A DNA stretch of 64,000 bases, from the NCBI GenBank assembly GCA_022827885.1, contig JAJEIP010000088.1, forward strand, positions 25,009-89,008. The letters are read 5' to 3'. Numbering within the stretch: position 1 is the first letter of the stretch; each line of letters opens with the position of its first letter. Below the pieces are notes generated by a model. The model made no database searches. It had not been told where the DNA came from and saw nothing but the letters and a program-made list of their open reading frames with translations. Made by a program: the position numbers and the translations under genes. This document shows positions 5,031 to 64,000 of this stretch, piece by piece. Source of the DNA: Candidatus Poribacteria bacterium (lineage in GTDB: Bacteria > Poribacteria > WGA-4E > WGA-3G).

Positions 5031-6800
5031 TTGATGAACTTTGAGGGTTTCCGATTAAACAGCGAATCTACACTCGTAAAAATCGTCCTAATCTGTATTC
5101 TGATTGCCTCAGCAGTTTTGGTGCTGCAGAACCTCGGACACAGTGGCATTACATATTGGGACGAAGGGTTTCACGCCGTTGTGGCACGGAATTTGACGAA
5201 GCATCCGCTCAAATTCACGCTCTACGATCAACCCTGGCTCCCTTACAACTATAAAGGGTGGGGTGAAAACCACATCTGGCTACACAAACCACCGGTAGCG
5301 ATGTGGACGATCTGGCTCTCGCACCTGATTTTCGGTATCAATACGTTCGCACTCCGGTTGCCGTCCGCAATCAGTCTCGTTGTAACGACGTGGTTGGCGT
5401 TCCGAATCGCTTCGGATCTTTTTGACAAACGAGCAGGACTCATAGCGGCATTTCTTCAAGCGTTTAACCCGTTTCTCTTTGAGTCGATTCACGGCTATCG
5501 CTATTCGGATCACATTGACATCGCGCTATTGCTCTGGGTACAAGTCTCGTGTTGGTTCTTACTCCGCGCCATTCGGACAGGAAAACGGAAGAATTATATC
5601 TTATCCGGCGTTGCGATGGGTGTCGCGTATCTGTCGAAAAGCTACCTTGCACTCATCACCTTTGGCATTGCGTTGGTTGTTTGGGCGGTCAGTTGGTATA
5701 CTGGACGGGGCAATACCGCAAGGAAAATTAAAATAAGCGATGTTGGGTTACAGCTCTTAGCGGCAATTGCGACAGTCGCACCGTGGGTCATCTACTGCCT
5801 GATTTACTATCGCAAGGAATTCCTTTGGGAACATAAACGCGTATTGGATCATCTCAACACCGATGTCGAAAGCTGGGGAGCAAGTTGGGATCGACCGCTG
5901 TTTGACTATATGCCGCTCTTTTATCCGGTATTCTATGCTGCGCTTGTTGCGGCAGTGTTATGTCTAATTGTGGTCCTGTTCAGACGTTGGGAGTTGGCAG
6001 AACTCTTTGTGTTAGCTTGGGGGATCGGTGTGATTGTTCCGCACACGCTTGCGGAGACGAAAACACCATCGGCGACGATGATTGCTGTACCACCGCTGCT
6101 GATGTGTCTTGCAGCAGTGATCAGTCGGGCATGGCAACGACGGGATTGGATTTACACCGCTATTTGGATGGCGGGGATGCTTGTGATTACTATCATCTCT
6201 GGTGGACGGACGCTCGTCAAAAGCAGAGATCAGTTCGATGGACTCAAGAAATTCGCGCCTTTTATCCAGACAAATTTCTGGATTGTTGAGCAATTGATCG
6301 GGTTCGGGGTGTTGCTCGCAATTTTCGCGGGAGTGCATATGCTGGTTCGCCATCGCAACCTGCAGCGGTGGATGTGGTTGGGTCTCCGGACAACGGCACT
6401 AATAATCGCGTTGTTCTATGCAGGACGCTATGTGCAAGCTGCTTATAGGGTTACGGAGCGAAATAGTCAAGTCCCCCTATACGAAGTGAGTGGGCAACGT
6501 CTCCACCGTGAAATGCCAGAGAACGCCTGCTTTTTTCTTGACGATGAACGCGTCGGCGCGCATTTCGATTTGATGTATTATGCCGACAGGTCAACGTATC
6601 AGATTTATAATAAGCACATGAAGGAACCTCGCGATTTCAAGAACCAAGCGGAGATAGCGCGCGAAGCCGGTGCGATCCCTTATCTTTTCTCTGTCAAAGA
6701 AACGGTTTACAATTATCCGCTGTTCATTGAAGGCACCGTGGACAGCGGGAACGGAAAAATGCAACACTATCGAGTTTTTGAGATTACAGAAATTGAGTAA
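5031..6800 (+). CDS. Polytopic membrane glycosyltransferase, GT39/GT83 (ArnT/PMT-like) family
   Basis: About 12 predicted TM segments. The N-terminal loop motif YWDEGFH resembles the DE-containing first loop of ArnT/PMT_2 enzymes. There is a large C-terminal soluble domain. Confidence 0.55.
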   Translation: MMNFEGFRLNSESTLVKIVLICILIASAVLVLQNLGHSGITYWDEGFHAVVARNLTKHPLKFTLYDQPWLPYNYKGWGENHIWLHKPPVAMWTIWLSHLIFGINTFALRLPSAISLVVTTWLAFRIASDLFDKRAGLIAAFLQAFNPFLFESIHGYRYSDHIDIALLLWVQVSCWFLLRAIRTGKRKNYILSGVAMGVAYLSKSYLALITFGIALVVWAVSWYTGRGNTARKIKISDVGLQLLAAIATVAPWVIYCLIYYRKEFLWEHKRVLDHLNTDVESWGASWDRPLFDYMPLFYPVFYAALVAAVLCLIVVLFRRWELAELFVLAWGIGVIVPHTLAETKTPSATMIAVPPLLMCLAAVISRAWQRRDWIYTAIWMAGMLVITIISGGRTLVKSRDQFDGLKKFAPFIQTNFWIVEQLIGFGVLLAIFAGVHMLVRHRNLQRWMWLGLRTTALIIALFYAGRYVQAAYRVTERNSQVPLYEVSGQRLHREMPENACFFLDDERVGAHFDLMYYADRSTYQIYNKHMKEPRDFKNQAEIAREAGAIPYLFSVKETVYNYPLFIEGTVDSGNGKMQHYRVFEITEIE

Positions 6801-9849: not shown

Positions 9850-10914
9850 ATGCGACATGTGATTTACAAGTTATTGTTCATACTTCTTTTACTCTGGGGG
9901 CTTCCCGCGCACGCCACAACCAATGTCGGTACGGCGGGTGCTCAGTTTCTGAAAATCGGTCCCGGCGCGCGGGTAGACAGTCTTGGAGGGGCGTTTGGCG
10001 CGCTCGCCAACGACGTAACCAGCATCTATTGGAACCCCGCAGGAATAAGCCAACTCGAAAAAACCAGTTTTTCGGACACACATACCGTCTGGCTTGCCGA
10101 TGTCCGGTATAATTATCTGGCGTTCGCAACGCCGATAAAAAACATCGGCACTTTAGGCGCCAGTGTCACATTTCTCAACGTCCCTGATACCGAGATTACC
10201 ACGCTCGCAAAGCCTGATGGGACAGGGCTCTGGTATTCCGCTTATGATACTGCTGTTTCGTTGGCGTATGCCCGACAACTTTACGAACGGGAATCCGGGG
10301 TTAAGTTGTCTGTCGGTATTAACGCCAAATACATTCATCAGCAGATCCACCGCGAAAGTGCCAAAGGGGTCGCTATTGATGTCGGTACCTTGTACCATAC
10401 CGGTTGGCGAAGTTTACGGATCGGGATGTGTTTCTCGAACTTTGGACCGGAGATGCGCTTCGGCGGTCCCGATTTGACAAGCGGGGCAGAGGTCGCAGGC
10501 GACCCACGGATCGCAAGCTACCGTCCATTTCCAGACACAACGAATCCAGAACGGAAAACGGAATTAGAGACGATTGAGTTCCCGCTACCCTCCAATTTCC
10601 GGCTCGGACTCGCCTATGATATTATTGATGCTGGTAGCAATCTTCTCACCCTTGCACTCGATGCCAACCATCCCAACGACAACAGCGAGCGATTGAACAT
10701 CGGTATGGAGTACTGGTACAGAAAAATGGCAGCAATTCGTGGCGGTTACAAGTTCCGCTTGGGTGAAGACCGCGCCGACGATGAAGAGGGACTTACACTC
10801 GGCTTGGGTATCCATCTGAACCTGGGCAGACGGATGCTTTCCCTTGATTATGCTTATGCTGACTTCGGACGTTTACAACAGGTCCACCGAGTGAGTGTGG
10901 GGCTCCAATTTTAA
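9850..10914 (+). CDS. porV: PorV/PorQ-family outer-membrane protein (T9SS-associated, UPF0164-like)
   Basis: Signal peptide, then TTNVGTAGAQFLKIGPGARVDSLGGAFGALANDVTSIYWNPAGI, the family's N-terminal signature. Beta-barrel-like C-terminus ending in F. Confidence 0.7.
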   Translation: MRHVIYKLLFILLLLWGLPAHATTNVGTAGAQFLKIGPGARVDSLGGAFGALANDVTSIYWNPAGISQLEKTSFSDTHTVWLADVRYNYLAFATPIKNIGTLGASVTFLNVPDTEITTLAKPDGTGLWYSAYDTAVSLAYARQLYERESGVKLSVGINAKYIHQQIHRESAKGVAIDVGTLYHTGWRSLRIGMCFSNFGPEMRFGGPDLTSGAEVAGDPRIASYRPFPDTTNPERKTELETIEFPLPSNFRLGLAYDIIDAGSNLLTLALDANHPNDNSERLNIGMEYWYRKMAAIRGGYKFRLGEDRADDEEGLTLGLGIHLNLGRRMLSLDYAYADFGRLQQVHRVSVGLQF

Positions 10915-15576: not shown

Positions 15577-18500
15577 AAGCAACACCTCTTATGTAATATA
15601 TTGAAGATTTGTATCCATCTCTCGCTCATCGTAGCTACTGCCCTCGTGATAGGGTGTGGTGAGAAAGAGAACAGGGACATTATTGAAGCGCGAGCCGCTA
15701 TTGTTCGCGGAGATTATGCTGCTGCACAAGCCGCGGTCCAGAAGACAGATGCTGCAAATCAGGAGGCGCGACATCTCAAGGCTTTCCTGCAAAACCGCAC
15801 ACGCACTGAGACGGAGGGGTGGCACCAAGCGATTGCGCAATCGAACGCTTATCTTGAAACGCTCGCCGCAGACATCCTCGTTATCTCGTTGATGGAAGAT
15901 CCGGATTCTGACGAACTTGATCGACAGGAGAGACTCGTCCGCTCGCAGAACGCCATCTCTGGCCTCTTCGCTGTGTCGCTTGCTGAAGCGGTCGAAAAAC
16001 GTCCCGAATTGCTCTCTGAACTCGTAGCGCATTCGGATGCGGCTGTCGTTATAGGGCTTTTAGCCGCAGAAAAATGCTATCAACCGAACGCGCTCGCAGC
16101 GGTCTCAGAACTCATGACAAAACTCGGAAATGGAGAAGCGGTTGTTGAACGCTTGCAGCAGGCGATGCATCATAAAGATACAGCCATACAAAAGGAGGCT
16201 GTCCGTTATCTTGGGGCGATGCGAAACCCTGAACTCATCCCAATTTTTGAAGGAGCCCTTGCTGAAACGGAAAATGACCCTGAAGTCGCCTACAGAGCAA
16301 TCGTCGCACTTGAACAATCCGTGGGTAGTAGAGGTACGGTTACCTCGTCCCTACCTGCAGCCATTGTGCCGGGACTCCAACTCGCCCTCAGACACAACAG
16401 TGCGCAGGTCCGAATGCACGCCGCGAAACTCCTCGGGAGCCTCCAAACAGAAACGGCTGTGCCTGACCTCGTCCGACTTCTCGCAGATCCGAACAGTTAT
16501 GTCAAAGATACCGCCATAGGCGCGCTGAACCGTATCGGGGAACCCGCCGTTGCTCCGCTACTCGAGGTGTTAGACACTGGTGCCCGAAACCTTATTCCCG
16601 ATGAGGACCTCGGCTTTGCCACAGAGTATCGGTACATCGCGAGTGCTTATATTGATAGTTTATGGATGAAAAAATATAGGATCGGAACCTTATCAGCCGC
16701 GATCCAGGCCCTCGGGTTACTCAAAATGGAAGATGGCGTAAAGCCGCTCATAGACGAATTAGAAAACGAGGATTTGCAAGATGCAGCGTTGGCGGCACTC
16801 GTCGAAATGCGTGGCGTTGCTGTGTTACCGATGATCGACGCACTCAAAAACGGCACAGACGAAATCCGAGTGAGGGTCGCAGATGCGCTCGGACAAATCG
16901 CGGATCGGCGCGCAATTGTTCCGCTCGTTGAAGCATTGGACAGCGATCCATACAAAGAGGTAAAAGCATTTGCAGCGGTCGGGCTTGGTAATATGCGGGC
17001 ACGTGGTGAGAATAACAGGGTAGTCGTCGCGCTCACGAACGCACTCTCCTATGACGATACAACCGCGACAAATGCGGCAGAGGCACTCGGAAAAATTGAT
17101 GTATCCACAGAAGATGCCGTTCAAAAATTGATTCTCATAGCGATGGAAAAAAATATGCGTGAGACCTTACGCATTGCCGCGCTTACAGCACTCTGGCGGC
17201 TCAAGCCTCAAGAAGCAACGCAGTCGATGCTACTTCTGATGTTCAGTGACGAGACCAGTCCAGTCTTGCGCGCGAATGCTGTCAAGGTGTTGAGCCGAAT
17301 TCAAGCCCCTGAAACGATTCCTGTGTTACTCTGGGTGCTTTCCACACAATTTGACGAAATTTCAGATTTTCAACGGCATATGAAACGAGAATACAAAACG
17401 CTGGATACGCTCCGAACACAGGTTGACACCTTCCAGATTCAGTGGACACCTGACTATCCACGCGCAAACTATCGGACATGGGGTGAACTTAAACCGATTC
17501 CAAGTCTTGTTCGAAGTGAGGTTGCTCGAGCACTCGGTATCATCAAAGGGGACATTGTCATAGAGCCTCTGGCAAACGCACTTCGGGACGATGGGCGCGC
17601 AACCGTCCGACAAAGCGCAGCGTGGGCACTCGGTGAAGCCAAAGGGGATGATGCCATCCCACCGCTGGTTACTGCATTGAAAAAGGATAAACAGGGGGCT
17701 GTCCGACAGGAAGCAGCGATCGCACTCGGGAAAATAAAAGGACTGAAGGTTGTTGACCCACTCGTAGATGCCCTGAAAAACGATAAATATGAAACCACGC
17801 GCTTTGAAGCCGCAAAGGCACTCCGAGAGATTCAAGCCGGGGATAAAGGGCTTGTTGATGTTGTCAAAAAGGGCTTGGGAAGTTTTGATGATGGATACGA
17901 AGTACAATCTGTTCAGGACGAAGTCATTGGCGCATTGGTCAAAGATAACAATATTCCAACAGCCCAATTTGCACTCGATGCTCTGAAATCTGCAGATGAT
18001 GAGTGGGTCCGATGGAAACTCGTTCATGTGATCGGAGCGTCTGCGAAAAAAGTTGGCGTTGATGCTATGGTCGAAGAACTCAAACACCCGAGTTATGTCG
18101 TCCGTAGGCGCGCCGCAGAGTCGCTCGGTGGGTTCAAAGAACGCCGCGTCGTTGAACCGTTGATCGCTATTCTCGAAAATATGGAGGAGATGAAGTCCAT
18201 TCGTGCGGCGGCGGCGTTCTCACTTGGTGCCCTGAAAGATGAACGTGCGTCTGCATCGCTGCTAACCGCACTTTCCGACCCAAATGCCGAGATCCGATTG
18301 CAAGCCGCCGTCGCCTTGGGAAAACTCAAAGATACCAAAGTGATTCCGCGACTGAGTGAGATTGTTGAGGATCCATTAGAACCGGATACTGTCCGTGATG
18401 CTGCTGTGGCGGCACTCGGCAATATTGGGAACATGGCAGCTGAAGCCGTCCTGATGCGTGCTTTGGATGTCCGGATCGGAAATATATCAAAGAATGCTGT

Positions 18501-55038: not shown

Positions 55039-56967
55039 TCAAGGCGACCAGAGGACATAAGTTGGCATATCGAACAGCGTGCCGATGAGTGCCCAGCCCC
55101 CTACGAATACATAATCGCCCATGACCAATCCGAGAAAGAAGGGGATTGCACGTTGATGGGCACGTAGACCGAAGATTGAGACAATGATAACCTTTATCAT
55201 CCAACCGATATACACGGAGAACCAGAAATCAGCAAGACCTCCCCAGGTTGCGGCTGTCATCACGTATCCGATCGGATGGAAGGGCCACCAGATGAATTTA
55301 TGCCGCAGGAAATAGAGAATCCATGTCATCCCCGCACCGATTCCCATGGATTGCGAGCCATCCCAATTCGGACCGGTAGGATTGTTAAGCCACCGTTCTA
55401 AACGTCTACCGAAAACCTCCTCACCAATACCGATGACGTAGCCGTGGACAGCAAATGCCCCGGTCTCATAAAGGAGATAGAGGAACGCCCAAAACGAGGC
55501 GAGTGTCCCGATAACAATCGCGAACATCATCACCCAAACCAATTTTCGGCTGTTTATGCCTGCACGTTCTGCAAGTTTGAAACCTTCTAATTGGTTTGGC
55601 ATCGGGTGTGAAACATTGAGGCGGTTGAGCCAGTAGTAGAAGGATATGATTGTGAGATTACCCGTCCCGACGAATCGCGCGCCGAAGGTGACGACCATCA
55701 ACCGTGCTGGATCGAGAGCGAGGATCTCATGGGAGGGGGGTCCAAATTCGGCACGCACACGTGTAACCCCGAGCGCCATTAAGGTGAAAATGACAATAAA
55801 ACCGAGGACACCGCCCAAGGACATACCCGCTTTTACCGAAAATAACGTGAGTCCGATACTCCCGAGGATTAATCCAGCGACAGCAACACGGTAAGGCATC
55901 GGCTCGTTTGAATCGTCATACGCTTTTTTGGTCATCAAGCAATTCAGGATCACATCGCGGAGATGTTTCCGGGTTCCCCAGAGTGCCAAAATACCGACGG
56001 CGAGCCATGCACCACCCGCGCGTTCTGCAAAATAGAGTTCACCTTCACCTAACATCCCCGTCCGAACCACCCGTTCCGCTTTGCCGAACAGATAGAAGAA
56101 CCATGCGGACATCGAGATGTCCAACGGGACAAAAAATGTGAGTCCTATAATAAACGGGTAGATGGATAAAGGTACCCACCCGACAGCGTTCCACGGCTTA
56201 TCCGTGAACAGATGCGTAATCGAAATAGAACTCAGCCGAATAGCCGGGACTTGGGGGAAAAGATGGCTTAATCCGGCGAGGAGTTCAATAAAGGCGGCGA
56301 CCGAAAAGCCTACCCACATCGTGGTGTTTCTGTAAAAACTTTTCCGTCCTTGCGCCATCTGGAGCGGTAATTGGATGATCGGGTATGCCAACTTTTCACG
56401 CTCCGTCCACTGAACGCGGATAATGCTATTGAGACATATGAGTGTGAACCAGAGGAGCGCAACAAATCCTGTCCAGACGAGGATCGGCACCATCCAGCCC
56501 CGTAGATGCTTCGGGAGATAAAAACTCAAGCCTCCCTTAAAGTAGGCATCCAGTGCGTAGTCTTCAGGCACAAACCATGTCGGGATATAACGCCAAAAGA
56601 GAGATGCCCATTCGTTTTCGATGGTAGCGAACCGGAACGGATGGGCAAGTGTGCCGATCAGGAACGTCATCATGGAGTGCCCGCCGATCGTTGATACCAT
56701 GACGACCATAATATAGATAACAAGAAGTTCCTGGGCAGTCAAGGCGTGTTTCGGCGCAAGTTTTTTCCAAACAAGGTTAAAAGCAATAACGGCGAAAAGG
56801 GTGAAGAGCGCGTTGAAAAAAAGCGAGACGAAATTGAGGAGGAACTGCGGTTGGATCATCTCCGCCGCATAGGCGAGCCAGTAGGCGTTCCCGATAACGA
56901 GGAGTGTGCCAATCAGAAGCGCGCGGAGCGTAATTCCAGATGTAAAGGAAGCATCGGATTTTGACAT
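55039..56967 (-). CDS. Large polytopic membrane protein of unknown function (about 16 TM segments; possibly DUF6785/DUF6784-like)
   Basis: Very hydrophobic 643-aa ORF starting at the MSKSD methionine (56967). I recognise no catalytic motif. Confidence 0.5.
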   Translation of the reverse strand: MSKSDASFTSGITLRALLIGTLLVIGNAYWLAYAAEMIQPQFLLNFVSLFFNALFTLFAVIAFNLVWKKLAPKHALTAQELLVIYIMVVMVSTIGGHSMMTFLIGTLAHPFRFATIENEWASLFWRYIPTWFVPEDYALDAYFKGGLSFYLPKHLRGWMVPILVWTGFVALLWFTLICLNSIIRVQWTEREKLAYPIIQLPLQMAQGRKSFYRNTTMWVGFSVAAFIELLAGLSHLFPQVPAIRLSSISITHLFTDKPWNAVGWVPLSIYPFIIGLTFFVPLDISMSAWFFYLFGKAERVVRTGMLGEGELYFAERAGGAWLAVGILALWGTRKHLRDVILNCLMTKKAYDDSNEPMPYRVAVAGLILGSIGLTLFSVKAGMSLGGVLGFIVIFTLMALGVTRVRAEFGPPSHEILALDPARLMVVTFGARFVGTGNLTIISFYYWLNRLNVSHPMPNQLEGFKLAERAGINSRKLVWVMMFAIVIGTLASFWAFLYLLYETGAFAVHGYVIGIGEEVFGRRLERWLNNPTGPNWDGSQSMGIGAGMTWILYFLRHKFIWWPFHPIGYVMTAATWGGLADFWFSVYIGWMIKVIIVSIFGLRAHQRAIPFFLGLVMGDYVFVGGWALIGTLFDMPTYVLWSP

Positions 56968-57117
56968 TTTTAAATGGCGGTCGACTTCGGCGTTCAACCG
57001 TCGGTGAAGACGGCCATCGACTATCGGATCATCGCATCCAATAAACACTGATAACGGGTAATATTGACAGTGTCAGTTCCCGATTATGGATTGTTGATAG
57101 TCGATGGCTGACAATCT

Positions 57118-57900
57118 TTATTGTTTCAGAGTTCCCCACGTGAGTGCAAGCTTGCCTGAAGGCACAACGGGTAATACTTCGTCGTCAAAGATGAGGTCGC
57201 CGTAGGCGAGACCATCCCAGGCACCGCCCGGTGTCCATCCGATCTGATGTTCGCGCCCGCCACCCTCACAATCGTTGACATGAAAACTAAGCCCGATGAG
57301 TAAGCCATCTTTCGCTTTGAAGTTTTTTCCCTTCGCCGGATTGGCAAACTGGGGATTACCACGGGGCTTTGTTGGGTCGATAGCGACTTCATAGATGTAA
57401 TCATTTCCATTGTTGATCAGCACCCATTCAGTATTGTCTTTGGATGCAGCGGCGGATAGATCCTTACCATTTGCGCCGAGTGTCCACTGAACGAGGCTCT
57501 CTCTGACCATCCCGTTGTCAAAATCAAACATGAATTCGACGCTATCATCATTCCACCAATTGGCATTGGGCGGGTGAATATCTTGGAGTTTATCGTCGGT
57601 GATTTCAACAGCGAAATAGATACGGGTTGGGTCTTGAGCACGCCACGCAACCCTGCCTTGTCCGGTAAAGTCGTTGGCTTTCGGGACACCGTCGCCGACA
57701 TCTTTCAGTTCATCAAACGCAACGATTTCAGCGCGTTCCCATTCGCTGAGATCGCCGTCTACTTTAAGGTTCGTGATTTGTTTGGCGACGTACTGTTTAT
57801 CACGTTTTGCAACTGCTGTTAAATGTGCTGCGAAGAATATCAACGTGACAACTGTTATCAGTCTACCTATGCCCTTACCGAAATTCATAAGTTTTTTCAT
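57118..57900 (-). CDS. Secreted CBM9/DOMON-like carbohydrate-binding protein with C-terminal ...GKLALTWGTLKQ tail
   Basis: GGAGG precedes the ATG at 57900. N-terminal signal/anchor. VDGDLSEWE...AWRAQDPTRIYFAVEITDD...DDSVEFMFD fits CBM9-like domains. Confidence 0.55.
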   Translation of the reverse strand: MKKLMNFGKGIGRLITVVTLIFFAAHLTAVAKRDKQYVAKQITNLKVDGDLSEWERAEIVAFDELKDVGDGVPKANDFTGQGRVAWRAQDPTRIYFAVEITDDKLQDIHPPNANWWNDDSVEFMFDFDNGMVRESLVQWTLGANGKDLSAAASKDNTEWVLINNGNDYIYEVAIDPTKPRGNPQFANPAKGKNFKAKDGLLIGLSFHVNDCEGGGREHQIGWTPGGAWDGLAYGDLIFDDEVLPVVPSGKLALTWGTLKQ

Positions 57901-59270
57901 GAGAGAATTCCTCCGTTTTTCAACAGGTGAATCGGTTGATCCTGTATGCCGTGTTCCTTCATCAATTTGCACGTTCCACACAACAACTGAAGATTGTCGG
58001 AAGTATCCGTGCCGCTTTGGGATCGTGCTACAATGTGGTCAACTGTCATATTGCGAAATGCGGATAACGTTTGGCAGCCATCGCATCTGCCTTCCTGACG
58101 TCCAAAGAGTGTATGCTTAAGGGTTCGTTCCTGCTGGTAAATTTGAGGATGACCCTTTCGATGGATGACCTGCTTGGTAATACCGTGCTGTTCAAGCCGA
58201 AGTTTCGCCAGTTTGAAAGATTCAGGGCTTAAATCAATGCCGATCCAGTGGCGTTGTAGTCGTTCCGCGGCAATACATGTGGTAGCGCATCCGCAGAAAG
58301 GGTCGAGCACCATGTTTCCCGGATTGCTGCTGGCACGAATAATTCGTTCTAACAAAGCGATCGGTTTCTGTGTGGGATACCCGATCCGCTCCTTATTGCG
58401 TGCCGTTAAGTTCGGAATATCTACCCAGATGTTATTTAGTGTTTTCCCTTTTTGTTCGTCAAGATACCGTTTGTATCGAGGGACATTTCCGGGGCGTGTT
58501 TGCACGACGCGTCCGGCTTCGATCTCCTTTAGCATCCGAGATTCCGACCACCGCCAGGTTCTGGTGACACCCATCACGTCATAAGTGAGATGAGAATCGG
58601 GGTTTTGCGTTTGAGCAGTTATAGAAGTATGCGATACGAGTCGTCCGGTACCGGGTTCAACATAATAATATTGGCGTTTGGTTTTTTCGTCGAGATCCTG
58701 CATATCGTAGGGGATCGTGACGGCCTCAGGATTCCATACGAAATCGTTGCTTTTTGAGTATCGGAGGATAAGATCGGAGTCTCGTGCCAATCCTTTTTTG
58801 AGGTTCCCTTTGCTGGTTACGGCTCTTTGCCAAATGATCTCGTTCCTAAAATTGTCTTTCCCGAAAATGCCATCCATCATCATTTTCAGGTAGTGGCTTG
58901 CGTTGTCATCGCAATGAAGATAGAGCGTTCCTGTCGGTTTCAGAATTCGATACATCTCTAACATCCTGATACCCATCATAATCAGATAGGCTTTCATGGA
59001 TGTCCCGTGCGTGAATTCAGCAGTGCTGATGGCGTGATAAAGATCGGGTGCTTTCTCGGCAAGTTCACCGTGCCACGCGCTATCTAAATCGTTTGGTGTC
59101 CAGGAATCTTTGAATGCTGCGCCGGCTGCTTCGCTTTCTGTTGCTGCTTCAAAGGTTCGATTGGAGTTGAAAGGTGGGTCGAGATAGATCAGATCAATGG
59201 TATCAGCGTCAAGACCCCGAAGCACATACAGATTGTCACCTTCAAAGATGGTTCGGTTCTCGACATTCAT
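57897..59270 (-). CDS. DNA methyltransferase (beta-class N6A/N4C, DPPF motif) fused to a C-terminal HNH nuclease domain
   Basis: Motif IV DLIYLDPPFNSN lies near the N-terminus and motif I VLDPFCGCATT lies later. C-terminal CDGC...DHIVARSQSGTDTSDNLQLLCGTCK is HNH. The stop overlaps the downstream start (ATGA). Confidence 0.8.
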   Translation of the reverse strand: MNVENRTIFEGDNLYVLRGLDADTIDLIYLDPPFNSNRTFEAATESEAAGAAFKDSWTPNDLDSAWHGELAEKAPDLYHAISTAEFTHGTSMKAYLIMMGIRMLEMYRILKPTGTLYLHCDDNASHYLKMMMDGIFGKDNFRNEIIWQRAVTSKGNLKKGLARDSDLILRYSKSNDFVWNPEAVTIPYDMQDLDEKTKRQYYYVEPGTGRLVSHTSITAQTQNPDSHLTYDVMGVTRTWRWSESRMLKEIEAGRVVQTRPGNVPRYKRYLDEQKGKTLNNIWVDIPNLTARNKERIGYPTQKPIALLERIIRASSNPGNMVLDPFCGCATTCIAAERLQRHWIGIDLSPESFKLAKLRLEQHGITKQVIHRKGHPQIYQQERTLKHTLFGRQEGRCDGCQTLSAFRNMTVDHIVARSQSGTDTSDNLQLLCGTCKLMKEHGIQDQPIHLLKNGGILS

Positions 59271-59302
59271 TCTATCACCTACGATGTCGTGCAGATGTGT
59301 TT

Positions 59303-59330
59303 AGAGGCGCGTCTCGGGGAGCGCGCCTCT
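59303..59330. terminator. GC-rich hairpin between the LamG gene and the methyltransferase gene (possible terminator, no U-tract)
   Basis: agaggcgcg (59303-59311) / cgcgcctct (59322-59330). Confidence 0.35.
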
Positions 59331-59344
59331 TGAGGGGATAACAT

Positions 59345-60139
59345 TTATCGACGTGCTTTGAGAGTGCCCCATGTCACGGCGAGTTTGCCGTTCGGTTCAA
59401 CAGCGAGTCCTGTGTCAGACTTGAAGTTCTGATTGACTTCGGCTTCGTCAAGCACTCGATCATAGATGCTGAATTCGTCTATGATACCCGTAAACACACC
59501 GAATTCGCCGTCGGCTCTACCATCTAAACCGATAAACATGTGAATACTTGCCCAGTCATCCTCAGGGAATTGGGCGAGGTTCAGTACTCCCTCGGCCGTT
59601 GCTTCACCATCAACAAAGAATTGGACCTTACTATCCTCTGGTGTCCCCGCGACAGCAATGTGATGCCATTTATTATCGTCAATGTTGTTTCCGGCATCTT
59701 CGACATTGCCTACCCAGCCGGTGTCAAGATTAAGGACACTATTGCGAACCCATAGGGTTTTGGGCCCCTTATCATCGGTACCGGGACCGCCTGTCTTGGC
59801 GAAGATTACACCGGGACCCGAATTGGCGGTCTTTATCCATGCCGACCAAGTGAAATCGGCGTTGAAATCAAACGCTTCTGGGCTGTCGATTTCGACAAAA
59901 TTCGTATCGTCTTCGTCGAACTCCAACGCGTCGCCGATTTTACCGCCTACTTTTTTCAGATTTCCCTTGATAGAGCCATTATAATTGCCGGTTCCGTCCT
60001 TAACGGTCTTTCCGTCGATATTGTTTGCATCGAAGCTCCAATAACTAACCAGTCCATCTTCGACGATTTGGGCGGACAGGGTGGTTCCCATAAAACTGAT
60101 AGTCAGAATGAGTAAGAAAAGAATAGTCTTTTGCAACAT
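59345..60139 (-). CDS. Secreted LamG (concanavalin A-like lectin) domain protein with ...GKLAVTWGTLKARR tail
   Basis: Signal peptide. GLVSYWSFDAN N-terminal LamG motif. WHHIAV..., GIIDEFSIYDRVLDEAEV. AAGGAG lies upstream. Confidence 0.75.
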   Translation of the reverse strand: MLQKTILFLLILTISFMGTTLSAQIVEDGLVSYWSFDANNIDGKTVKDGTGNYNGSIKGNLKKVGGKIGDALEFDEDDTNFVEIDSPEAFDFNADFTWSAWIKTANSGPGVIFAKTGGPGTDDKGPKTLWVRNSVLNLDTGWVGNVEDAGNNIDDNKWHHIAVAGTPEDSKVQFFVDGEATAEGVLNLAQFPEDDWASIHMFIGLDGRADGEFGVFTGIIDEFSIYDRVLDEAEVNQNFKSDTGLAVEPNGKLAVTWGTLKARR

Positions 60140-60206
60140 AAGTGAATCTCCTTTGATTCTTTTGCGTATGGGAAACGTGCAAACGAGCCTTACGTGGACA
60201 TGTCTT

Positions 60207-60374
60207 CTATCCTCTGAAAATTTTTCTGAGAATCAGAAACGCGCCGCCAACGACAATGATGAACAAGGCGACGGAGAACAGGAAGGCGAAGATCGCTTGC
60301 AAAATTTGGAAAAGAATCAGGATACATACAACGAAAATGACGATCCCGAAAATGACAAGTAAAATTGTTCCCAT
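60207..60374 (-). CDS. Possible 55-aa two-TM membrane peptide (below the ORF-track cutoff)
   Basis: Minus-strand ATG at 60374 to TAG at 60207 encodes MGTILLVIFGIVIFVVCILILFQILQAIFAFLFSVALFIIVVGGAFLILRKIFRG. No clear SD. Confidence 0.3.
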   Translation of the reverse strand: MGTILLVIFGIVIFVVCILILFQILQAIFAFLFSVALFIIVVGGAFLILRKIFRG

Positions 60375-60588
60375 ACGTTAATGTGTGTGGATATGAATCC
60401 ACGTTGTAGATGGTTATCGGTGGTCATCAGTAGAAAGTCTTCAAAAGTTGTAAAGTGTGCTAAAGTTGTGAAGTTGTCAGAAGCGATGAAACCAACTTCC
60501 GAACCTCGCAACTTGCAAACTTTCATATTGACATCTAACTAACAAGCCCTTTTCCTGAAAACCCAACCAGTGACCACTGATAACTATA

Positions 60589-61362
60589 TTAATAGCGTGC
60601 TTTGAGCGCGCCCCAAACAGTTGGAAGTTTGCCAGTTGCCTGAACAGCGAGGATCTCATCGGGTGTGCATTCGTCAGCCGTCTCGCAAATTGCCCAATTG
60701 TCAAATGAGACAATGGTCAATGCGGGCGCGCCTCTGCTTGAACCCCCGTTGAGCCCAACTTGCCCACTCTCAGGTCTGACGTTTCCAAAATCGAGTTTAC
60801 TTTCAAGGAGCCAATCTTTGGGTTCATCTTTGCCATCTTCCCAAATTTTACCGGTAAACCCGTCGTCGGATATTTCGGCTTTCATCCAGTACCATGTACC
60901 GAGGTCTACTTCTCCGAAAGGCGGTTCGGTATCGTTCTGTTTCCAAGCGAGATGGTCGTTGAGGAACTCCATATTATTGAGGAAATGGTGAATCAGGAAG
61001 GCATAACCGGAGGCATCTCCCGGATCAAGACGGAATCCGAGTCCACACCGAGCAAGGTCACCATCGCCCCAATCATCGACGCGAATCATCACTAACCCCG
61101 TATGGGGTTCTGGGAAACCGCCGTCTAAGACGAGGTAGGTGTGGTCGCCAGGGGCTTCATGGGTTTGACTGATAACGCCCCCCTTTTCTACCCAATCACC
61201 GTCATGGTTCTTGAATTCATATTTTCCGTCAATTTTTCCATCTTCAAAATCGTCAAGGTATAACACTTCACCAAAACTGGTTGAACTCCATGCGAGTATA
61301 GCAGTACACGCCAGTATGGAGAGGAAGGATTTGTGGGTTAAGAGTCTCTTAGTAATACGCAT
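60589..61362 (-). CDS. Secreted concanavalin-like/DUF1080-like lectin-fold protein with ...GKLPTVWGALKARY tail
   Basis: Signal peptide. DDFEDGKIDGKYEF...GDWVEKGGVISQ..., GYAFLI and TWYWMKAEISDDGFTGKIW patterns. Confidence 0.5.
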   Translation of the reverse strand: MRITKRLLTHKSFLSILACTAILAWSSTSFGEVLYLDDFEDGKIDGKYEFKNHDGDWVEKGGVISQTHEAPGDHTYLVLDGGFPEPHTGLVMIRVDDWGDGDLARCGLGFRLDPGDASGYAFLIHHFLNNMEFLNDHLAWKQNDTEPPFGEVDLGTWYWMKAEISDDGFTGKIWEDGKDEPKDWLLESKLDFGNVRPESGQVGLNGGSSRGAPALTIVSFDNWAICETADECTPDEILAVQATGKLPTVWGALKARY

Positions 61363-61446
61363 CGGAACATCCTCCTTTACAGTAATTCTTTGTTGGTTTA
61401 ACGTGAGATCAGGAAAGCAATCGCCGCTGTCCGAATTTTGATGTCC

Positions 61447-62235
61447 TTATGGAGTTGACCTGCGTTTGCCGCCATCCATATAAAGCGCGCTTCCAAACAT
61501 ATAGGAACAGGCTTCAGAGGCTAAGAAGGTTACAACATTCGCAACCTCTTCGGGTTCGGCAATTCGTCCCGCAGGGAGTTCTCCTCCGAGTTCCTTTAAC
61601 AACACTTCGACGTCGCGTCCCTCACGCTTGGCTCTTGCCCCCTGCTGTGTCCGTGCTCGACCGGTGTTTGTCAATCCCGGACAAACAGTATTTACCGAAA
61701 TGCCATCACCCGCGACAGCATCTGAGAGCGCACGCGTAATGTTAAGAATAGTGATGTTCGCAGCACCAGTGGGTATGTTGCCACGCGTTGGACTTGTACC
61801 GGCTGAACCTGCGATATTAATGATGCGTCCCCACCGGTTTTCCTTCATGTAGGGGATAACCAATTGAGACATCCGAAGGTAACTATAGGTTTTCAATGAC
61901 AGTGCTTCATCAATCAGGTGAGGTGACAATCCCAAAATATCGGCATTCCGAGCGGCACCGACATTGTTGACGAGGATATCAACACCACCGAAATGATTCA
62001 CTGTCTCCTGCACCACCTTCTCACAATTCGCGGGTATATTTAAATCGCCTGCGACGGCATGCCCTTCGGATCCAGTCTGTTTAAGTGCCGCGAGCGTTTG
62101 ATTGAGTGCGTCGTGGGTTCGGGCAGCGATACAGACGTGAGCACCTTCTCGGGCAAGTGCGAGCGCGCACTGCCTACCGATGCCTCGACTACCGCCGGTA
62201 ACGATTGCGCGTTTTCCACGCAGTCCTAAGTCCAT
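61447..62235 (-). CDS. SDR family oxidoreductase
   Basis: RAIVTGGSRGIGR, NNVG, and the Y-x3-K context in a typical SDR layout. Confidence 0.75.
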   Translation of the reverse strand: MDLGLRGKRAIVTGGSRGIGRQCALALAREGAHVCIAARTHDALNQTLAALKQTGSEGHAVAGDLNIPANCEKVVQETVNHFGGVDILVNNVGAARNADILGLSPHLIDEALSLKTYSYLRMSQLVIPYMKENRWGRIINIAGSAGTSPTRGNIPTGAANITILNITRALSDAVAGDGISVNTVCPGLTNTGRARTQQGARAKREGRDVEVLLKELGGELPAGRIAEPEEVANVVTFLASEACSYMFGSALYMDGGKRRSTP

Positions 62236-62393
62236 GTATCGTGCGTCCTTTACGTTGTTCCTGGTTTCTTAAAGGGTTACGGGAGTCTACTGTGGTGTTT
62301 TCAATCTTATACAACTCACGAGGAGATGCCCACCTCATTTTGGCGGACATCTCATTTTCAACACATTCTGTAAGCGCACGTTTCGATGCGTAT

Positions 62394-63242
62394 CTATTGG
62401 GAAGATTTGAGGGATCCCCAAGTTGTCGCTATTTTTCCAGCGGCATCGACCGCTAACGCGCCTTCAATACCTTCACCGAGTTTTACGACATCGTCATCAG
62501 AGAGCACCATGTCAAAGATAACAACTTCGTCAATAATACCGTTCCATTGGCAGCGTTTACCACAACCCGGGTCGGCGCCGATATAGACCTCTTCAGGAGA
62601 TGCCCACGGGGGTCCCTTGGCATCTTCGGAATTCTCAAGTTTACCGTTAACGTAAACATGCAGTTGAGATCCGTCCCATGTGCCGACGAGGTGGATCCAC
62701 TCTCTGCCTTGAAGTTCGTCGCCGAGGACTTCAAGTTTTCCACCACCGTTAGCAACACGAATGTGAAATGAAGCGTTCCTGCTATTTTCACCGTTCTCGT
62801 GTGCACCGGTGCCGAGTAAAAACTGGGACCAGGTTGAACATCCGAGTCCTTTCCATATCACACATTTACCGTTTGGATCTTCTGCCGCGTAGACCCAAGA
62901 ATGGATTGAGAACCCTTTGGAGTCCTTGAAATCCAAGGCAGCTAATGTCTTTTCTTCACCCTTCGTGCCGAGTTTGACCCAAGTGTCGTTGCCGTTAAAC
63001 TCTAAACCGCCGCCGAATTTGCCATCCACCCATTTCAGGTCGCCGACAAATTCACCGTGGGTGTCGTTACCGGAAAGATCTTTTACCTCTTTACCTTTAC
63101 CTTCTTCAAAGGTCCACATCCCCGCAATGTCGCCTTCATCAAACGCCGCATGGCTCGTAGCCGTTACCGCGAAGCTGAAAGCAATAGCAACAATTGCAGT
63201 GAGTGTATAATTCAGATAGCGTTTTGCCAAAAACATATTCAT
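62394..63242 (-). CDS. Secreted LamG domain protein with ...GKIATTWGSLKSSQ tail
   Basis: Signal peptide. DIAGMWTFEEGKG. WIHLVGTWDG...VYVNG. GIIDEVVIFDMVLSDDDV. Confidence 0.75.
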   Translation of the reverse strand: MNMFLAKRYLNYTLTAIVAIAFSFAVTATSHAAFDEGDIAGMWTFEEGKGKEVKDLSGNDTHGEFVGDLKWVDGKFGGGLEFNGNDTWVKLGTKGEEKTLAALDFKDSKGFSIHSWVYAAEDPNGKCVIWKGLGCSTWSQFLLGTGAHENGENSRNASFHIRVANGGGKLEVLGDELQGREWIHLVGTWDGSQLHVYVNGKLENSEDAKGPPWASPEEVYIGADPGCGKRCQWNGIIDEVVIFDMVLSDDDVVKLGEGIEGALAVDAAGKIATTWGSLKSSQ

Positions 63243-63278
63243 TTCCTTTTTGAGAGCGATGCGATGATCGTTTCTCCC

Positions 63279-64000
63279 TTATTTTTTCAGGCTGCCCCAT
63301 GTGACAGCTAATTTCTCTTTCGCGTCTACGGCAAGCGTCGTTTCGAAGCCGTCATTCATAACCGCTTGGACGTCATCTTCATCGAGGAAAGTGTTGAAGA
63401 TGATGAATTCGTCTAACAGCCCTTCCCATTGCCGAGACTGGTTCCAGTCACCAATTCGGGCAGGATCAAGGACACCGGGATTTCCACCCCAATCGTTTTC
63501 GATATCGAGTTCACCGTTAACGAAAAAGCGGATTTTCTTTTCCTTTGCACTATAAGCGGTTGCGATGTGGACCCATTTATCCATCTGATCGCCTGCCAAC
63601 ATATAGTTCGCAAAAGTGTCGTTCCCGCCTGGGTTACTGTGAATGGAGAACTCGACTTTGTTATTCGGATGCATCTGGTAATGGATGTCCCCGGCTTTCC
63701 AACCGTTGACGTTGAAGAAAACACGCCATGCCCCCTCGCGTCCAGTGGATTTGACCCAATGTGCGAAGGTAATTTCTTCAAATTCGCCGATCCGCTTCGG
63801 GATTTCGACCCAATCACCTGCGCCGTCGAGTTCGATGGCATCACCGAATTTCCCAGCGACAAAGTTTCCACCTTTAACCTCACCATCAAACCCGTTCCCG
63901 GATATATCTTCGGCATCGCCCTCAAACAGCCATGCTGCCGCGATCATATCTTCGGTGATTTCTGCAGAACTCAGCATACTGACACCTAATAGGAGCAGCA
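63279..64000 (-). CDS. Secreted LamG domain protein with ...EKLAVTWGSLKK tail, 5' partial at window edge
   Basis: The frame stays open upstream of the Met at 63977 (..LLLLGVS-MLSSAE, the end of a signal peptide). AAAWLFEGDAED. WVHIATAY. GLLDEFIIFNTFLDEDDV. Confidence 0.75.
   Translation of the reverse strand, partial: LLLLGVSMLSSAEITEDMIAAAWLFEGDAEDISGNGFDGEVKGGNFVAGKFGDAIELDGAGDWVEIPKRIGEFEEITFAHWVKSTGREGAWRVFFNVNGWKAGDIHYQMHPNNKVEFSIHSNPGGNDTFANYMLAGDQMDKWVHIATAYSAKEKKIRFFVNGELDIENDWGGNPGVLDPARIGDWNQSRQWEGLLDEFIIFNTFLDEDDVQAVMNDGFETTLAVDAKEKLAVTWGSLKK

Follow-up and report, generated by a model that had tools for sequence, protein, structure and literature searches.

Poribacteria, which are still uncultivated, rank among the dominant symbionts of marine sponges. 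Here we analyse a 64-kb stretch of a Candidatus Poribacteria bacterium genome (64,000 nucleotides; contig JAJEIP010000088.1 of assembly GCA_022827885.1, positions 25,009 to 89,008; hereafter the window), at one end of which five genes encode secreted or probably secreted proteins that finish in closely similar short peptides (Table 1). We find that this C-terminal tail, about 20 residues long, forms a self-contained peptide module: it is strictly C-terminal, independent of the fold that precedes it and conserved at the level of the peptide. The tail occurs in multi-copy tandem arrays and, among named records, is restricted to the phylum Poribacteria.

Table 1. Features of the 64,000-nucleotide window, in window positions; tail proteins first.
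Feature	Coordinates	Strand	Details
Tail protein 1, secreted, CBM9-like	57118..57981	(-)	tail LPVVPSGKLALTWGTLKQ, encoded 57121-57174
Tail protein 2, secreted LamG (Laminin_G_3)	59345..60139	(-)	tail LAVEPNGKLAVTWGTLKARR, encoded 59348-59407; DNA pattern match
Tail protein 3, secreted, remotely DUF1080-like	60589..61362	(-)	tail LAVQATGKLPTVWGALKARY, encoded 60592-60651
Tail protein 4, secreted LamG (Pfam)	62394..63242	(-)	tail LAVDAAGKIATTWGSLKSSQ, encoded 62397-62456; DNA pattern match
Tail protein 5, LamG	63279..64000	(-)	tail LAVDAKEKLAVTWGSLKK, encoded 63282-63335; N-terminus cut by window end
N6/N4 DNA methyltransferase fused to HNH nuclease (Pfam)	57897..59270	(-)	between tail genes 1 and 2
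Short-chain dehydrogenase (SDR; Pfam adh_short)	61447..62235	(-)	between tail genes
DUF6785+DUF6784 polytopic membrane protein	55039..57048	(-)	Pfam E=4e-151
ArnT/PMT-like (GT-C type) polytopic glycosyltransferase	5031-6800	(+)	directly upstream of the next two genes
Secreted protein with a divergent type IX secretion-like C-terminal domain	6670/6862-9837	(+)	about 1,000 residues; ends in ..LASGVYIYHVEARDESGEVVGNKIGRFAIIR
PorV/PorQ-family outer-membrane protein	9850-10914	(+)	NF033709, 229 bits against a cutoff of 90; directly after the preceding gene

All five tails quoted in the original prediction were found unchanged at the ends of their open reading frames (ORFs). They read L-A-V-[ED]-[PA]-x-G-K-L-A-[TV]-T-W-G-x-L-K, followed by 1-4 mostly basic residues. 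The six-frame translation of the window contains W-G-x-[LIVM]-K six times: five of these are the tail C-termini, 1-3 residues before the stop codon, and the sixth is an internal WGELK at 17479 that is unrelated to the tails. A degenerate DNA pattern for G-K-[LIM]-A-x-T-W-G-x-L-K matches the window three times (in tail gene 1 at 57124-57156), against 0.00 expected from 100 shuffles. The tail lies past the end of the fold, as had been proposed: the Pfam CBM9_1 and Laminin_G_3 envelopes stop before it in each protein with a hit. The domain assignments hold for CBM9_1 in protein 1 (E=1.9e-14, covering residues 80-250 only) and for Laminin_G_3 in three proteins, whereas 'DUF1080-like' is no more than plausible for protein 3, which has no Pfam match even at E<=10 and aligns over its full length with a poribacterial tail protein of the DUF1080 (3keto-disac_hyd) family at 27% identity (E=3e-8). 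Signal peptides, claimed for all five proteins, are present in four, with the likely true start of protein 1 at an ATG near 57903 (MKKLMNFGKG...). The fifth is only likely to have one, as its ORF runs off the window end; its in-frame upstream sequence (..LLLLGVS-MLSSAE) resembles the end of a signal peptide, and its orthologue at another poribacterial locus (L087) has an identical tail and a hydrophobic N-terminus. The genes are co-directional, as described, but they are not contiguous, the methyltransferase-HNH and SDR genes intervening. In the tails of proteins 2 and 3, the third codon base is equal at 9 of 10 identical residues, compared with 30-56% for the other pairs, an agreement that may reflect either local gene conversion from one tail to its neighbour or coincidence.

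The wider set of tails defines the module more closely. Across 186 unique tails, the profile (per cent) is L60 A65 V97 E/D72 P/A88 x G80 K L83 A82 T/V78 T87 W G94 x L/I94 K, in which K, W and the last K were fixed by the search expression and the remaining positions were free. This conserved region spans 17 residues and is followed by 1-4 more, most often three, which are enriched in R (17%), K (12%), A, S and Q. The last of these is most often R or K, and the final residue is R, K or Q in 116 of the 186 tails; a consistent arginine cluster after the motif is not seen. Upstream of the motif lie 5-8 residues of variable sequence in which G, E, D, P and S are frequent, and we therefore read them as a linker. 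The DNA of the tails differs between copies, as the original prediction had noted: in 192 unique tail DNAs every conserved residue uses all its synonymous codons. Selection thus acts on the peptide, and a DNA- or RNA-level explanation of the tail is ruled out by this full mixing of codons. The tail also contains no hydrophobic run, in agreement with the earlier observation that no hydrophobic helix follows the motif; the Eisenberg mean hydrophobicity of GKLATTWGxLK is -0.16 to -0.23, amphipathic moments are modest (0.48 as a helix) and the 12 residues between the signature and the basic end include two Lys, two Thr and two Gly.

To place the tail taxonomically, we scanned one genome per species across 185,579 species with a back-translated DNA pattern. 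The pattern occurs at at least 118 loci, against a chance expectation of about 6 matches (roughly 37.4 bits over some 1.2e12 positions), and among the matches listed all are from metagenome-assembled or single-amplified genomes of Candidatus Poribacteria or from a few metagenome-assembled genomes labelled 'uncultured bacterium'. The same pattern had no match in 2.9 million viral contigs. At the protein level, seeds consisting of gene-call fragments of 34-79 amino acids from a word index of 5.8 billion proteins gave a tail profile that, in an exhaustive hmmsearch of 1.84 billion representative proteins, returned 1,030 clusters at E<=0.001. Every organism name on any protein hit is Candidatus Poribacteria, and among the clusters of divergent hits the only one that is named is also poribacterial. 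A single genome holds at least ten tail genes. Two to five tail genes occur together in 51 of 115 loci, and 75 of 79 adjacent pairs are co-directional.

All 126 strict matches listed lie 1-7 residues from the stop codon, which bears out the proposed extreme C-terminal location, and a hidden Markov model (HMM) of the tails gave about 160 hits of at least 10 bits over 0.93 Mb of loci, all of them terminal. A loose regular expression over the loci gave 196 matches, 194 C-terminal and 2 internal. Among 139 newly returned library hits, the motif ends 0-7 residues from the C-terminus in 132; the other seven have 10-43 extra residues that resemble read-through, mostly on fragments.

The carriers are exported proteins of many kinds. 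The expected association with signal peptides was found: by a crude home-made heuristic, and not SignalP, 89% of complete carriers score positive, against 22% of control ORFs. Those that fail mostly have a hydrophobic N-terminus behind a non-ATG start or are fragments. Because lipoboxes (2 of 181 carriers) and twin-arginine (Tat-like) motifs (8 of 181) are rare, the signal peptides are of the Sec/signal peptidase I type. Carriers have a median length of 271 residues from stop to stop and, once the tail is stripped, their bodies group into 19 clusters at E<=1e-3 and 29 at the stricter E<=1e-10, with at least 12 Pfam folds. Laminin_G_3 is the dominant passenger, alongside CBM9_1, 3-keto-disaccharide hydrolase/DUF1080, NPCBM, CBM_4_9, DUF3108-like and DUF4960 domains; further passengers are a six-bladed Kelch propeller, an LDL-receptor class B (YWTD) protein, an ankyrin-repeat protein, a protein combining leucine-rich repeats (LRRs) with a metallopeptidase, which bears a degenerate tail, and several proteins without any Pfam hit. 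The carriers without lectin-type domains likewise start with signal peptides.

Among the homologues of tail protein 2, 98 of 107 retain the tail, which persists at body identities of 26-35%. The nine that escape the regular expression include several near-misses, and two (P0099 and P0106) stop where the fold ends. In an AlphaFold2 model of tail protein 2 built on a 67-sequence alignment, the LamG sandwich has a predicted local distance difference test (pLDDT) score of about 86-98. From residue 245 onwards, the tail scores about 50 and is drawn as a detached, low-confidence helix (249-263) rather than a docked strand. The nearest folds to this model in the PDB are lectin-type jelly-rolls, namely a neurotoxin Hc N-domain, a trans-sialidase lectin domain and a GH43 accessory domain.

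Short C-terminal tags common to unrelated exported proteins are a known kind of signal, and we compared the tail with each described class. Neither the full-length proteins nor their isolated C-termini of 41-45 residues matched a Pfam or NCBIfam model for the tail, even at E<=10. Nine isolated tails likewise matched no NCBIfam family at E<=10, whereas a control, a poribacterial C-terminal domain (CTD) of the type IX secretion system (T9SS), reached 24.2 bits against TIGR04183 (cutoff 23). Our literature searches found no description of the motif, nothing joining Poribacteria with 'sorting signal', and nothing useful for the tail in the work on Poribacteria with LamG or T9SS. Measured against the Haft criteria for small C-terminal sorting domains (LPXTG, PEP-CTERM, GlyGly-CTERM, MYXO-CTERM and others; bioRxiv 10.1101/2023.06.07.544157), the tail shows features 1, 2, 3, 6 and 7, and 5 in part: it is C-terminal, present in multiple copies per genome, built around invariant signature residues and borne by otherwise unrelated proteins with signal peptides, and its end is partly basic, but no transmembrane segment follows the motif. 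It thus resembles the tripartite signals read by sortase (LPXTG), exosortase (PEP-CTERM), rhombosortase (GlyGly-CTERM) and myxosortase (MYXO-CTERM) in its size, close to their roughly 20-30 residues, and differs from them in having no hydrophobic transmembrane segment, no NCBIfam match and no candidate intramembrane sorting enzyme seen nearby.

The closest parallel in behaviour is the T9SS CTD (type A, TIGR04183/PF18962; type B, TIGR04131), which also sits at the extreme C-terminus of Sec-exported proteins, often of lectin, propeller or repeat type, is present in many copies per genome, is modular on unrelated passengers and coexists with the tail in Poribacteria. The CTD, however, is a folded Ig-like or beta-sandwich domain of about 70-100 residues, whereas the tail has about 20 and is modelled as unstructured. 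That the tail might be a truncated CTD was rejected, hhalign giving a probability of 0.7% for tail against CTD profile. Dockerins (PF00404), which pair with cohesins, are comparable as interchangeable C-terminal handles on varied carbohydrate-binding or enzymatic passengers encoded in arrays. A dockerin is, however, a calcium-binding duplicated-helix domain of about 60-70 residues, for which the tail is too short, and we found no Dockerin_1 Pfam match on the tail proteins and no cohesin-like partner. The beta-signal by which the BAM complex recognizes outer-membrane proteins (OMPs) is likewise short, C-terminal, borne by exported proteins and marked by Gly and an aromatic residue, but it ends in an aromatic at the last position of a beta-barrel; the tail ends mostly in R, K or Q after a variable 1-4 residues, and its passengers are soluble lectin, propeller or repeat domains. 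Encapsulation peptides of bacterial microcompartments are amphipathic helices on cytosolic enzymes, unlike a tail on Sec-exported, lectin-type proteins. The tail thus departs from the defining architecture of every described class: a transmembrane helix and a folded CTD are both missing, and no HMM matches it.

The original prediction had called the tail a modular sorting, anchoring or docking tag that corresponds to no named signal. This umbrella reading is supported, as three observations that could have spoken against it were sought and none was made: the tail is not the closing strand of a lectin fold, given the all-alpha ankyrin, propeller and LRR passengers, the tail-less LamG homologues and the AlphaFold2 model; it is not found internally or on cytoplasmic proteins, nearly all hits being terminal and the carriers mostly positive for signal peptides; and no model of a described family covers it. 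Residue-specific conservation spans unrelated passengers, which argues for recognition by a common macromolecular partner, and the strict terminal position together with exported, binding-type cargo points to the outer membrane or cell surface as the destination. We infer that a single partner, common to all carriers, reads the tail and that the carriers are localized to the surface as a result. On these grounds we tentatively favour the view that the tail serves as a signal by which proteins are sorted or attached to the outer membrane or cell surface, a view to which we give nearly an even chance.

The favoured signal would work as follows. The Sec pathway exports the passengers by means of their signal peptidase I signal peptides. 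In the periplasm, the unfolded tail would be recognized sequence-specifically by a single shared envelope component, which could be a translocon or shuttle, or a processing or transpeptidase-type enzyme, and which would direct the passenger to the cell surface or outer membrane or fix it there. The tail would then do the work of a T9SS CTD or a sortase-type signal, minus their fold or transmembrane helix; its carriers are mostly small, single-domain glycan binders, together with propellers, ankyrin and LRR proteins. In a more specific form, the scheme would amount to a hitherto unrecognized sorting pathway private to Poribacteria, distinct from the T9SS-type CTD route of the same cells, in which a dedicated outer-membrane translocon or transpeptidase reads, in the periplasm, a signal of about 20 residues that does not span the membrane, and delivers a large and rapidly diversifying repertoire of 'eukaryote-like' lectin, propeller, ankyrin and LRR proteins to the surface. 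We regard this fuller version as possible but doubtful.

Several points weigh against a surface-sorting signal. The tail is without sequence similarity to the T9SS CTD, and the substrates of sortase-, exosortase- and rhombosortase-type enzymes are all retained at the membrane for processing by a transmembrane helix (10.1101/2023.06.07.544157) that the tail does not have. A census of the neighbourhoods of tail loci gave no peptidase, sortase, OMP, secretin or translocon; the recurrent neighbours are instead metabolic genes, a TRAP transporter and an OPT-like transporter. Export of the carriers has been judged by the crude heuristic described above, and the tail's pLDDT of about 50 is suggestive, low pLDDT not being proof of disorder. 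Finally, absence of the tail outside Poribacteria is not proven, because the matches are those listed and few protein hits carry taxonomy.

If a private sorting pathway exists, the host-facing repertoire that it delivers would meet the sponge matrix at the symbiont surface. The lectin-like and eukaryote-like proteins of these bacteria are prime candidates for binding the host matrix and for host recognition. Kamke 2014 (PMC3909097) left the export routes of poribacterial surface and eukaryote-like proteins unresolved. A tag common to more than 1,000 exported protein families would provide a sequence rule for predicting the poribacterial surface and secreted proteome, and a synthetic tail peptide or the profile HMM could serve as a handle for finding the reader or machinery. 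The tail is also a phylum-specific marker motif, and it may represent a new class of C-terminal signal in diderm bacteria that has neither a transmembrane helix nor a folded CTD.

An unlikely but credible alternative is that the tail is a non-covalent docking peptide, a dockerin-like handle, though much shorter than a dockerin, that forms a hairpin or augments a beta-sheet of a common scaffold or receptor. The partner might be another tail protein or a protein of the surface or of S-layer-like type, and the product would be arrays of interchangeable lectin modules, with no role for the tail in translocation or cleavage; such a modular lectin-display system would again operate on the symbiont surface. 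The passengers are overwhelmingly small single binding modules encoded in tandem arrays, which recalls the assembly logic of the cellulosome, the strong conservation of K, T, W, G and K fits a protein-peptide interface, and the tail alone is unstructured in the AlphaFold2 model. The 1-4 variable residues after the motif further imply that the free carboxylate itself is not recognized. A docking peptide could, however, also sit between domains, yet none of about 190 copies is internal; the census shows no repeated gene for a cohesin-like receptor beside tail genes; and the crossing of the outer membrane would be left unexplained.

It is more improbable still that the tail is an interfacial membrane anchor, with K-L-A-T-T-W-G-x-L-K-x-R-R lying in the plane of the leaflet and tethering periplasmic lectins to the inner or outer membrane without a protein partner. 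PBP5/DacA of Escherichia coli is a periplasmic enzyme with a C-terminal amphipathic membrane anchor of this sort, and the tail resembles that anchor as a short C-terminal segment on a Sec-exported soluble domain in which Trp and Leu are flanked by basic residues. The low-confidence helix of the AlphaFold2 model, with its modest hydrophobic moment, is in keeping with such an anchor. The tail is, however, weakly hydrophobic, with a negative mean and only three or four apolar residues, and Gly and two beta-branched Thr in its core disfavour a helix. Its conservation also goes far beyond the needs of lipid binding: lipid-binding helices tolerate drift, whereas V, G, K, L, A, T, W, G, L and K of the motif are kept at 80-100% when the passengers share 26% identity, and the upstream L-A-V-E-P part is conserved too, yet is not amphipathic.

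We consider very improbable a regulatory or quality-control tag, that is, a site for a periplasmic protease or chaperone, a degron or a removable pro-peptide, that governs the lectins' abundance or activation rather than where they are located. The tail is C-terminal, conserved, unstructured in the model and found on exported proteins only, all of which would suit such a tag, and C-terminal tail-specific proteases (Prc/Tsp, CtpA) occur in diderms. These proteases, however, read apolar extreme C-termini, whereas the last 1-4 residues of the tail are variable and basic; no S41 or PDZ protease gene recurs nearby in the census; and a need for one degron shared by over 1,000 binding-protein families of a single phylum is hard to explain.

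The membrane protein encoded next to the tail genes offers a further, scarcely credible, alternative, in which the carriers capture substrates in the periplasm and use the tail to dock on an adjacent importer. The original prediction had singled out this gene (55039-56967) as a possible partner of the tail. Its product contains DUF6785, on which we found no paper, and DUF6784, and its AlphaFold2 model (pLDDT 87; predicted TM-score (pTM) 0.90) resembles barley Yellow Stripe 1 of the OPT family (7wst_A; Foldseek E=5.8e-9, TM 0.67/0.71); one DUF6785 homologue carries a precomputed OPT Pfam hit. From these models, the protein is probably an OPT/Yellow-Stripe-like solute importer whose gene sometimes lies in the same carbohydrate-type loci as tail genes. 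DUF6785 genes directly adjoin tail genes about 12 times in the 118 tail-selected loci, beside three passenger types (CBM9, LamG or DUF4960), and their neighbours are sugar-modifying enzymes, which is what a transporter-docking role would lead one to expect. In the reverse direction, DUF6785 homologues were picked regardless of tails and tail genes were sought within 5 kb: only one of six further locus types, P0177, has them (DUF6785-SDR-LamG x3), and none was found at the P0165, P0208/P0188, P0224, P0141 and P0202 loci. The sample holds 194 tail genes against 12 DUF6785 genes, most tail loci are without one, and we know of no OPT-family transporter that uses binding proteins. With a fold that is neither an enzyme's nor a translocon's, and with the outcome of the reverse test, the DUF6785 protein was ruled out as the tail's reader, and the earlier proposal is not upheld.

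That the tail is no module at all, merely the last strand or strands of each lectin fold, draws on the fact that most carriers are beta-sandwich lectins and can be virtually discounted, as far as sequence comparison and models allow: the same tail is also carried by ankyrin, Kelch, YWTD, LRR-peptidase, NPCBM and CBM4/9 proteins, some LamG homologues lack it, the Pfam LamG and CBM9 envelopes stop short of it and AlphaFold2 leaves it unpacked from the sandwich.

The window also carries T9SS-related genes. The protein that directly precedes the PorV/PorQ-family gene ends, as had been noted, in a CTD resembling T9SS type A, albeit a divergent one with no Pfam hit. The glycosyltransferase gene upstream of this pair has weak NCBIfam hits to lipid IV(A) L-Ara4N transferase and archaeal STT3. 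In the sampled poribacterial loci, eight ORFs have CTD-like C-termini, comprising seven canonical ones (Por_Secre_tail) and the divergent one of the window. Kamke 2014 (PMC3909097) reported CTDs but no T9SS structural genes in Poribacteria; seen here are the PorV/PorQ-family gene in the window and the canonical CTDs in the loci, SprA/Sov, PorU and PorK-N not having been searched for. The PorV-like protein was rejected as a regular neighbour of tail genes, there being only one full-length homologue in 118 loci. The two C-terminal modules meet in one family: an 874-residue ORF with a T9SS CTD (L108, OX638352.1 block) shares a DUF3108-like N-terminal domain with two short-tail proteins (L083:5639-6451 and an L008 ORF) at 33% identity (E=3e-28). 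Because this N-terminal domain is shared, one passenger family can bear either C-terminal module, a hint at a choice of anchor that favours the sorting or attachment reading.

Around the tail genes, the recurrent neighbours are PhyH, GFO/IDH/MocA, SDR, ADH, MR_MLE, LarA and TRAP DctQ/M genes, and further TPR, CotH-Ank, PD40 propeller, PolA and CTP synthase genes. SDR genes recur both beside tail genes and beside DUF6785 genes. The P0177 locus (L120-L122), with DUF6785, SDR and three LamG tail genes, mirrors the arrangement of DUF6785, tail genes and SDR in the window, which suggests that in some lineages of the phylum a transporter, a dehydrogenase and lectins form a cassette that recurs.

The methyltransferase-HNH gene, which overlaps the upstream extension of the ORF of tail protein 1, is unrelated to the tag and looks as if it had been inserted between tail genes 1 and 2 in the window's lineage, because the orthologous LamG and CBM9 genes are directly adjacent at another locus (L041, RKRR01000180.1), with no such gene between them. 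The same insertion is present in a Logan contig (L001). Two small ORF families without a Pfam hit, represented by L115:142-708 (+) (189 amino acids) and L062:1962-2522 (+) (187 amino acids), each occur in 7-8 of the tail-selected loci.

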